Shown: in pieces, positions 22,250-23,216 of the stretch | How positions within the stretch are numbered: the first letter of the stretch is position 1 | How the letters are laid out: every line of letters begins with the position of its first letter | Origin: a phage | Assembly (NCBI GenBank): GCA_025881525.1 | Contig: GCA_025881525.1_4849.1 | DNA: 24,537 nt | Reading direction: 5' to 3' (one strand) | The notes under the pieces: model-generated | The model's input: only the letters and a program-made list of their open reading frames with translations | What the model was told of the DNA's origin: nothing | Database searches by the model: none | Program-made: the position numbers and the translations under genes

Positions 22250-22310
22250 TTTCTACGTCACTAACTATAAACACGCCATCAATCTACGTCAACAGGAATA
22301 TGCTAAAATC
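22250..22310. promoter_or_regulatory. divergent promoter region with two direct copies of TCTACGTCA (22252-22260, 22283-22291); minus: TTGACG-17-TATAGT; plus: extended -10 TGcTAAAAT (22301-22309)
   Basis: Read directly; 15-mer AATCTACGTCAACAG identical to the copy at 9806-9820. Confidence 0.45.
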
Positions 22311-22339
22311 ATGCTAATCAAACAACAGGAGATTTAAAC

Positions 22340-22459
22340 ATGGGTTCCACCAATTCGCCTTCTCGTTCACGCGCTACTGGCAACACCAAAACTGGCGGCA
22401 AAACTGGCGCTGTGAAGCCAAACGGCTCCACTCGTTCACCATCACGCGGTAAAAAATAA
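22340..22459 (+). CDS. hypothetical small basic Ser/Thr/Gly/Lys-rich peptide (39 aa)
   Basis: GGAG RBS 8 nt upstream; TAATG overlap with next gene; low complexity. Confidence 0.3.
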   Translation: MGSTNSPSRSRATGNTKTGGKTGAVKPNGSTRSPSRGKK

Positions 22460-22899
22460 TGTTCGGCGCAGACGTTGCCATCATGATCATGTATGTGCTT
22501 GGTTTCGCCTGCACTGGCATGGTTGCGTTTCTGGTGTTCATTCCGGCAATGGTGATGTCTGTGTATCTTGGATGGGTGCTTGTTGATTCATTTCCCGCCG
22601 AATATCTGTATTACCTTGCGCAGTCTATGGTCTGGTTGTTTCCGGCTATTGCGCTGCGCAAAAGTACAAAGATGGCGCTCTGCGTGCTGACGATGAGCCT
22701 TTACGAATGGCTGGTAGCGATAGAGTCATTCGTATGGGAATTTATCACGCCTGTAGAAACGCCGCTTCATGCGCAGTACGCATTTATTATTATCGGCATC
22801 CATCTGTTCATCCTTTCCATCACTTTTAAATGGGGCGGCGAAATTGGACATTATTCTTGGCGTGGTCGCCATTGTTTTTTCGCTGATTCAAATCTATAA
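22459..22899 (+). CDS. hypothetical polytopic membrane protein (146 aa)
   Basis: Several hydrophobic segments; possible frame problem near 3-prime end. Confidence 0.5.
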   Translation: MFGADVAIMIMYVLGFACTGMVAFLVFIPAMVMSVYLGWVLVDSFPAEYLYYLAQSMVWLFPAIALRKSTKMALCVLTMSLYEWLVAIESFVWEFITPVETPLHAQYAFIIIGIHLFILSITFKWGGEIGHYSWRGRHCFFADSNL

Positions 22900-22931
22900 G
22901 TGCTGGAAACATATCATCAGCGAGACACGCA

Positions 22932-23216
22932 ATGAACGGAGCACTAAGGCAAGTCGCAGAGCAGATTATAAGCGGAACGGCGGGACAGGTGATTGACAAG
23001 GCTGGATATGCTTCTATTGGCACTGGCATCGGCCTGAAAGTCGCAGAGCAAACACCTGTCACGCAATCTTATTTTGAGGCTATGATTCCACACAGCCTGA
23101 CAGAGTGGGCGGCAGTAGCATCAATACTTGGTGCGCTATCTCTGGTAATAAAGAACCTGTTTGAAATGTGGTGGAAGGTACGGGAGTCTAAAAAAAATGG
23201 CAGCACCAACACCTGA
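22932..23216 (+). CDS. hypothetical protein with C-terminal TM segment (94 aa)
   Basis: Hydrophobic AAVASILGALSLVI followed by basic tail. Confidence 0.45.
   Translation: MNGALRQVAEQIISGTAGQVIDKAGYASIGTGIGLKVAEQTPVTQSYFEAMIPHSLTEWAAVASILGALSLVIKNLFEMWWKVRESKKNGSTNT

Follow-up and report, generated by a model that had tools for sequence, protein, structure and literature searches.

The window, that is the whole stretch of 24,537 nucleotides that was analyzed, belongs to a Skatevirus-like siphophage. Over 1.1 kb around the locus it is 94-97% identical to Salmonella phage Skate, the E. coli phages swi2 and Bas80/81, and Shigella phage Sf11, and a nucleotide comparison matched this segment to 190 phage records. 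In these relatives the locus is annotated with three genes, coding for a 39-aa hypothetical protein, a 146-aa "lipoprotein" (A), and a 94-aa "membrane protein" (C). On the 3' side of C they encode a DUF7370 gene, a tail-terminator gene, and a major tail gene, and a divergently transcribed ParB-like gene cluster sits upstream of the block. The endolysin/holin/spanin cassette is about 11 kb from the locus in phage Bas80. A separate Imm-like gene is found elsewhere in the genomes of these phages. More than 100 independent genomes share the layout of a 39-codon gene, a 146-codon A, a 32-nt gap, and a 94-codon C, and it persists in lineages where identity between the A proteins has dropped to 34-60%. 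Even where the A proteins are about 60% identical, A remains 441 nt long and is followed by the 32-nt gap and then C. The features listed in the original prediction were each present in the sequence where it had placed them. The features considered here, including a fourth, proposed gene (B), are as follows.

22301..22309, + strand: extended -10 promoter-like element TGcTAAAAT, conserved in distant lineages
22327..22331, + strand: Shine-Dalgarno element AGGAG of the 39-aa gene, 8 nt before ATG 22340
22340..22459, + strand: gene for a 39-aa basic Ser/Thr/Gly-rich peptide (PHROG 34767, E = 7e-27)
22459..22899, + strand: gene A, coding for a predicted polytopic inner-membrane protein of 146 aa (PHROG 14688, E = 4e-96)
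22832..22843, + strand: putative Shine-Dalgarno-like GGGG and A-rich 8-nt spacer (GGGGCGGCGAAA) of B, near-invariant across lineages
22844..22996, + strand: proposed gene B, 50 codons with a TTG start, under selection in its frame and open in all lineages
22875..22880, + strand: T6 run (B codons GTT TTT TCG), judged not to be a functional slippery site
22932..23216, + strand: gene C, 94 aa with a Gly-zipper-like segment and a C-terminal TM helix (PHROG 13738, E = 8e-60)

The first ORF encodes MGSTNSPSRSRATGNTKTGGKTGAVKPNGSTRSPSRGKK, in which a basic linker lies between two GST(N/R)SPSR repeats. It matches PHROG 34767, a family listed as unknown, over its full length (positions 1-39 of 39). Across 5 sister pairs the pN/pS of the gene is 0.07 (P = 6.5e-17). 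Homologs vary in length in frame (35, 39, and 44 aa), and the C-terminal motif VKPNGS.xSPxRG is kept despite synonymous changes that include TCN/AGC serine switches. This pattern of change indicates that the 39-aa peptide gene is real and tightly constrained. Its AGGAG element pairs with the anti-Shine-Dalgarno sequence at -7.4 kcal/mol and is kept as AGGAG or GAGGA in relatives. Further upstream, TGnTA(A/C)AAT is retained about 30-35 nt 5' of the first ORF in distant lineages, and also in a clade of Klebsiella phages without the peptide gene and A. We infer that the element at 22301..22309 is a promoter; the four-gene block would lie downstream of it.

The TAA stop codon of the 39-aa ORF overlaps the ATG of A as TAATG, and the peptide stop overlaps or abuts the A start in all lineages. 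Together with the weak Shine-Dalgarno element of A itself (-3.1 kcal/mol), this supports translational coupling of the two genes, as had been proposed from the single sequence. Translation of A would be linked to ribosomes terminating at the peptide stop codon. We also considered whether a -1 slip at the A6 run (22451-22456) joins the peptide to A, and rejected it because relatives keep neither the run nor the relation between the two frames.

A matches PHROG 14688 over its full length (E = 4.3e-96, positions 1-146 of 146). The only label of that family is "lipoprotein", which we reject for A. The label goes back to a match of the PROSITE pattern PS00013 in phage Vi II-E1; homologs have F, V, or I in place of Cys18, and downstream of this residue lie several further hydrophobic helices. 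Hydropathy and charge distribution are consistent with the earlier description of A as a polytopic membrane protein. The basic loops are RR and RKSTK and the acidic loops DSFPAEY and EFITPVETP, a charge distribution suggesting five helices in A(1-128), the N terminus being outside and the C terminus inside. An HMM search for the A family gave 9 hits among 1.84 billion representatives, each from the same clade or too remote to inform, and the family is confined to the present phage clade. Nothing significant was found for the peptide, A, B, or C in Pfam, NCBIfam, or PADLOC, and PDB sequence searches with the peptide, A, and C gave no match.

Constraint on the A protein is limited to codons 1-128 (to ..KWGGE). 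Upstream of the near-invariant GGGG motif pN/pS in the A frame is 0.09-0.22 and after it 1.0-1.1, and in a protein alignment the tail past KWGGEIG is hypervariable. In sequence terms the last 18 codons of A thus appear to be an unconstrained read-through tail over B.

The +1 frame over this tail holds a 75-aa ORF at 22769-22996, which includes LDIILGVVAIVFSLIQIYKCWKH and then a basic tail. Alternative-frame ORFs are common in this DNA: 62 ORFs of at least 80 aa are listed for the window, many of them mutually overlapping, and a 78-aa antisense ORF also overlaps the same place. Because an ORF of such length is common, it is conservation and not length that lifts B above chance. In a six-frame test, only the B frame was open in 11 of 11 lineages; each other frame was closed by stops in 7-11 lineages. 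The antisense frame whose third positions coincide with those of B was interrupted by stops in 8 of the 11. B is full-length (42-51 codons) in 55 distinct combinations of motif and B peptide, except at contig ends. The +1-frame peptide begins LDILLGVIAIGFSLLQIYKCWKYIINEARNER.. in the L031 group, LDIFIGVIAIVFALLQIYKCWQYIIKEVKNER.. in L040, LDILQGIVLIAALFFVICRCWTEIRKGLEDVR.. in L038, LDILIGLLVIALALWRIYKVWSGIIREVRNER.. in L080, LDILIGVAALAYGLWQIYKCWRYIISEVRNER.. in L084, LDILLGLISIAATGWGLYRTWSWIIREVCNVR.. in L088, and LDILIPILTIAAAGYGIYSAWRQIIKGWKNER.. in Yersinia phage P400.

Selection was estimated by Nei-Gojobori counts over seven phylogenetically independent sister pairs. Upstream of the motif, pN/pS was 0.09 in the A frame, 3.9 in the B frame, and 3.1 in the C frame. 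Over B codons 1-32 the corresponding values were 1.13, 0.23 (P = 4e-11), and 1.68, and in the overlap of B and C they were 0.84, 1.06, and 0.24. When all pairs of 8 lineages were used, the B frame had a pN/pS of 0.43 versus 0.97 and 1.17 in the other frames. The constrained core of B runs from 22844 to about 22940 and takes in the supposedly intergenic 22900-22931. B shares 56 nt with A and 65 nt with C. The start codon and Shine-Dalgarno element of C lie inside B, with the first 21 codons of C falling within the variable tail of B; there C is the constrained frame (pN/pS 0.24 vs 1.06 for B).

These comparisons indicate that the +1 frame from TTG 22844 is a real protein-coding gene. A small overlapping membrane gene had been among the possibilities raised in the original prediction, and it is the one that the homologs bear out, with the B frame conserved and under purifying selection that is absent from the overlapping frames. 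The single frame ending at 22899 that was offered as the alternative does not describe the homologs, as the B frame is conserved in them too. The limits first drawn for the ORF held only in part: coding extends from TTG 22844 to 22996, and 22769-22843 evolves as non-coding sequence (pN/pS 3.9). ATG 22769 was rejected as the start of B since the codon is missing in divergent homologs and the intervening +1 codons are neutral or faster. In the window the product of B would be M/LDIILGVVAIVFSLIQIYKCWKHIISETRNER followed by a variable basic tail, with a predicted N-terminal membrane helix and a Y-K/R-C-W motif ahead of that tail. From hydropathy and charge distribution, B is predicted to cross the membrane once, in an N-out/C-in orientation.

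Could the stretch 22844-22931 instead be conserved at the nucleotide level, for instance because it folds into an RNA structure, ends transcription as an intrinsic terminator, or holds the ribosome binding site of C, and not for the B protein? A terminator-like hairpin plus the T6 run does lie at 22858-22880, and the Shine-Dalgarno element of C is inside the stretch. Against this, variation falls mostly at third positions of the B frame and otherwise makes conservative hydrophobic replacements, with pS at 0.66 while pN/pS is 0.23-0.43. The hairpin and the T run are not conserved, and terminator-like sites are no commoner than in shuffled sequence. RNAalifold gave only a weak consensus around the motif and detected no covariation, and Rfam returned nothing beyond a snoRNA match below threshold. 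We find this explanation highly improbable, and a protein-coding B is retained.

B also appears to have its own initiation site. GGGG is at 22832-22835, and TGGGG(C/T)GG(C/A)GAAATTGGA is essentially invariant across lineages, even where identity of the A proteins is down to 34-60%. Over the motif the synonymous rate in the frame of A is 0.115, compared with 0.70 nearby. The Shine-Dalgarno duplex of B with the 3' end of 16S rRNA (-8.5 kcal/mol) is in the top 5.4% of the 1,492 ATG, GTG, and TTG candidate starts in the window; its strength resembles that of real genes, with the background of the window at -3.5 +/- 2.6 kcal/mol. Across all lineages the duplex is between -5.8 and -9.8 kcal/mol, and a GGGG or AAGG element precedes the B start by 5-8 nt in every lineage. 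Among the 55 motif and peptide combinations, the start codon is TTG in every lineage save L130, where it is ATG. A +1-frame stop is found 6-11 codons before the TTG in L037, L088/89, and L093, with no start codon between the two. In the distant L130/L131, the B equivalent is started by ATG (TGGGGTAAAGATG..., encoding MLTSALATISIILVTYSAIRALSDTVRAIRRDRERRK..) and has a stop 5 codons upstream. The spacing from GGGG to the start is 5 nt in L130 versus 8 nt elsewhere, and such variable spacing fits initiation and not a stimulator of frameshifting acting at a fixed distance. Gene callers called B only three times among 5.8 billion protein clusters, and in all three calls (P0047, P0048, and P0077) they chose the TTG. 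A TTG with a GGGG Shine-Dalgarno-like element within a translated gene makes for a weak-looking start.

The distribution of the genes is consistent with B being a unit apart from A. B and C always occur together and overlap, and A and the peptide gene are optional. About 50 records from a sister group of Klebsiella-infecting phages without the peptide gene and A, including BUCT610, MK54, VLCpiS13b, KP591P1, and KpV2811, retain B as a stand-alone ORF beginning LDIAIGVIVIAFSLVQVYRCWKFIIRRIINERR... In this clade ...CGTAAGGCGGCGAAA-TTG-GAT-ATA... encodes LDIAIGVIVIAFSLVQVYRCWKFIIRRIINERRASARRKPDN, TAAGG is found 8 nt before the TTG, and the same extended -10-like element is upstream. The overlap of the stand-alone B with the C start is exactly that of the window. 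Selection on B was measured between clades, as sequences inside the Klebsiella clade are too similar. Compared with the A-containing lineages, the Klebsiella B has a pN/pS of 0.26-0.56, versus 0.8-1.8 in the other frames, and most differences are synonymous. With no upstream gene there is nothing to shift from, making the stand-alone B decisive for independent initiation. B would thus be translated by its own initiation at TTG 22844.

The earlier reading had noted the T6 run beside a possible frameshift. A programmed shift at the run is rejected, since it is absent from divergent homologs, where it reads GGATTTTCG, GTTTTCGCT, or GTCTTAGCG, and B stands alone in the A-less Klebsiella-phage relatives. 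A different +1 frameshift can be drawn at GAA_A (AAA_A or AAA_G elsewhere). It would be programmed and stimulated by GGGG, giving a 178-aa A-B fusion beside the 146-aa A, and B would not be an independent gene. The stimulator spacing in prfB is 3 nt. The GGGG is 4 nt 5' of GAA_A, near that spacing, and AAA_A in P400, L093, and L129 permits perfect re-pairing of tRNA-Lys. Real natural single-ORF A-B fusions of exactly 178 aa also exist. However, re-pairing from GAA to AAA leaves a first-position mismatch in most lineages, and there is no slow A-site codon, as ATT (GAT in L130) follows the candidate shift codon. The distance from the Shine-Dalgarno element to the shift codon is 4 nt in most lineages but 1 nt in L130. 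A start codon always follows the putative shift (TTG, or ATG in L130), and no downstream RNA structure is conserved (covariation term +1.52). In a fusion, the basic tail after the resulting sixth helix would be periplasmic, against the positive-inside rule. Phages with B and no upstream A, namely the roughly 50 of the Klebsiella type, further argue against it, as do natural A-null phages in which B is intact. These are 64795_sal3, with a nonsense codon at A90, and SB28, with a frameshift in A. We therefore give this frameshift little credence.

The two mechanisms might also be combined. In A-containing phages, some ribosomes would shift +1 at GAA_A, so that the RNA serves both as the ribosome binding site of B and as a frameshift site, and the products would be A, free B, and an A-B fusion. 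If so, recurrent 1-nt deletions at G4, A3, and T6 would lock genomes into the fused state. Such a dual use seems to us no more probable than the simple frameshift. Separate initiation of B at TTG 22844 remains the preferred explanation.

The fused state was found in public assemblies by a search with an artificial fusion of A(1-128) and B, which returned genuine single-ORF A-B proteins of 178 aa. The frames are joined in three ways. A change from G4 to G3 connects ..FKW to AAKLDI.., one from A3 to A2 connects ..KWGGE to LDI.., and one from T6 to T5 connects ..RGRHCF to SLIQ... The T5 forms, which have one T deleted and are present in a few assemblies, break the frame of B itself. The G3 form P0049 is represented by 15 contigs of one run series. 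Six inspected assemblies agree on it and it differs from the window by a single gap over 2.3 kb, so this fusion is taken as real. Fused forms account for about a dozen distinct sequences (about 1%), compared with more than 1,100 distinct split ones, and fall within the closest clade. Loss of any one nucleotide in the overlap is bound to fuse the frames, and the junctions vary among the G4, A3, and T6 runs as those of random 1-nt deletions would, which does not favor a programmed shift. The fusions are best read as tolerated mutations of what seems to be the unconstrained tail of A. An AlphaFold2 model of the natural fusion P0001 had low confidence (pLDDT 69, pTM 0.45) and placed TM5 and B in one long helix. 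With this low-confidence model, Foldseek retrieved only the same family among viral structures, namely the truncated A of 64795_sal3. PHROG 20960 (179 positions) was rejected as a fused homolog because its match was not improved by the artificial fusion (24.1 vs 24.7 bits).

The fused forms also bear on whether the split in the window is a sequencing or assembly error, or a recent frameshift mutation, the true gene being one ORF of 178 aa. The overlap does contain the homopolymers G4, A3, and T6, and some assemblies carry the single-ORF version of 178 aa. The split arrangement, however, is present in 103 phage records carrying A, and also in IMG/VR, in metagenome contigs, and in every divergent lineage. 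It is the fused forms that are rare, confined to positions nested in the closest clade, and produced by several different junctions. An alignment of 35 distinct close homologs has no indel in 22760-23000. The sequencing error raised in the original prediction is contradicted by more than 100 independent genomes that share the two-frame arrangement and lack indels around the T6 run; we regard an error of either kind as almost certainly the wrong explanation. Taken together, the comparative data make it very probable that the locus comprises four genes in three interlocked frames, with the unannotated B initiating by itself at TTG 22844 and neither a frameshift nor an error involved.

We propose that ribosomes would initiate B at TTG 22844 by means of the GGGG and the A-rich 8-nt spacer, from a site inside the 3' end of A. 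With the B start there, the last 18 codons of A would be left as an unconstrained tail over B. The product would be an inner-membrane protein whose N terminus faces outward and whose basic C-terminal tail is cytoplasmic.

Deletion mutants provide information on the need for A and B. A CRISPR-based genome-reduction study was carried out on phage seszw (PMC9825161). Its mutant seszw_300S has a precise deletion of gene 20 (A) that also removes B codons 1-16 and keeps C, and the mutant is viable (PMC9825161). Many other reduced seszw mutants have the gene-20 deletion in common. A and B are dispensable in these genome-reduced mutants, and by inference B is not needed for plaque formation in the laboratory. 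As the deletion of gene 20 also takes B, phenotypes assigned to gene 20 in these phages are confounded. C is encoded in 205 phage records, among them seszw mutants reduced to genomes of 36-38 kb, for example MZ375352 (35,993 bp).

As to function, no significant profile, structure, or defence-system library hit assigned a role to B, A, C, or the peptide. Since B and C always occur together and overlap, the most plausible reading is that B is a small protein of the inner membrane that works with C late in infection, in an accessory role at the envelope. B might act as an accessory, with its invariable partner C, in an envelope function such as lysis timing or superinfection exclusion. B and C do not fit the pattern of a holin or antiholin, as the lysis cassette is about 11 kb away in Bas80 and B had no hit. 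The similarity of C to the P21 holin S was only sub-threshold (E = 0.07, 13.5 bits against a cut-off of 26).

B is unannotated in every phage record inspected, a group of about 200, and would be an overlooked conserved gene of 42-51 codons in phages whose hosts include Salmonella, E. coli, Shigella, Klebsiella, and Yersinia. Members of the BASEL collection and isolates characterized as biocontrol candidates are among the phages affected. The existing annotation misleads at this locus: the "lipoprotein" label of A is wrong and the "intergenic" 32 nt between A and C are probably coding. The last 56 nt of A appear to encode both proteins, and constraint there falls on the B frame. The locus shows cleanly how comparative genomics can resolve a frameshift-like signature.

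The signature resembles that of prfB in having a G-rich Shine-Dalgarno-like element a few nt before a +1 change of the constrained frame. Unlike prfB, the locus has no slow A-site codon, its spacing is variable, the downstream frame starts with a start codon, and the ORF also occurs alone. Small inner-membrane accessory proteins of phages offer another comparison. T4 Imm and Sp, HK97 gp15, and antihol­ins are like B in size, single TM helix, charged tail, and dispensability in the laboratory, and HK97 gp15 is, like B, positioned among morphogenesis genes, but none of these proteins has sequence or profile similarity to B.

Rz1 within Rz of lambda (an o-spanin gene inside an i-spanin gene) and 18.7 within 18.5 of T7 are likewise small envelope-protein genes that lie in the +1 frame of a larger membrane-protein gene and have their own internal start. 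Rz1 is a lipoprotein with a lipobox and is encoded in the lysis cassette, whereas B is without a lipobox and about 11 kb from the cassette. B also differs from the Rz1/Rz pair in overlapping only the 3' end of A and in surviving without A in the Klebsiella clade. E of phiX174, in the +1 frame of D, and L of MS2 are like B short, with one TM helix and a basic region, and encoded in an alternative frame. L of MS2, which bridges coat and replicase, and B both extend from the end of one gene across an apparently intergenic gap into the beginning of the following gene. E and L serve as single-gene lysis proteins in small phages with ssDNA and ssRNA genomes, while the phage encoding B carries a canonical lysis cassette. 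Mutants null for B still form plaques, and no sequence similarity to E or L was found. In its arrangement B belongs to the well-known class of small overlapping phage genes that includes Rz1 in Rz, phiX174 E in D, and MS2 L.

The peptide gene, gene A (the 146-aa membrane protein), gene B (the 50-codon +1-frame gene overlapping it) and gene C are separated from the ParB-like cluster by a divergent promoter-like region. The features of this stretch considered here are as follows.

22264-22309: divergent promoter-like region between the peptide/A/B/C operon and the ParB-like cluster
22292..22264, minus strand: sigma-70-like element, TTGACG-17-TATAGT, oriented toward the ParB-like cluster
22301-22309: conserved extended -10, TGcTAAAAT, oriented toward the peptide/A/B/C operon
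22340-22459, plus strand: 39-aa peptide, a basic linker flanked by two GST(N/R)SPSR repeats, SPKK-like
22858-22880: terminator-like hairpin TGGCG-TGGT-CGCCA, then TTGTTTTTT, within gene B
23190-23197: A8 run at the 3' end of gene C, at the start of the DUF7370 gene (ATG 23197)

The gene for the 39-aa peptide is under very strong constraint (pN/pS 0.07). It also occurs in in-frame forms of 35 and 44 aa, produced where TGNTK/TGGK units have been gained or lost. Where a distant lineage has a longer and acidic ORF in front of gene A, the C-terminal end of that ORF is nevertheless GSTGRPPR or STQRPKRPS, directly preceding the start codon of gene A.

Genomes with a disrupted gene A occur naturally (the related loci L133, at KX017520 17938-18207, L036 and L123). 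In phage 64795_sal3 codon A90 is a nonsense codon, and for this reason only an 89-aa ORF is annotated for gene A; in phage SB28, and likewise in one gut-metagenome contig, the gene contains a 1-nt insertion. Gene B is intact in all three of these genomes. In the genome-reduced mutants of seszw, in which gene A is annotated as gene 20, the designed gene-20 deletion also removes codons 1-16 of gene B and gives the 39-aa peptide a new end, ..GKKYL in place of ..GKK (L094, MZ375354 2380-2560). Phenotypes assigned to gene 20 are therefore confounded.

Divergent homologs do not conserve the hairpin within gene B, and terminator-like sites are no more frequent than in shuffled sequence. Within 23190-23216, gene C and the DUF7370 gene overlap by 20 nt; the A8 run is absent from divergent gene C homologs.

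In the records NC_021534, JF974294 and OL617041, labelled 'Vibrio phage pYD38-A', 'Aeromonas phage pIS4-A' and 'Flyfo siphovirus Tbat1_6', the B peptide shares 98% identity with its counterpart in Klebsiella phages; the hosts that these labels name seem doubtful. In Klebsiella phage MK54 a 52-aa antisense ORF is annotated across the site of gene B (MW119258, 632-790, minus strand); it is likely a spurious call hiding the real plus-strand gene B.
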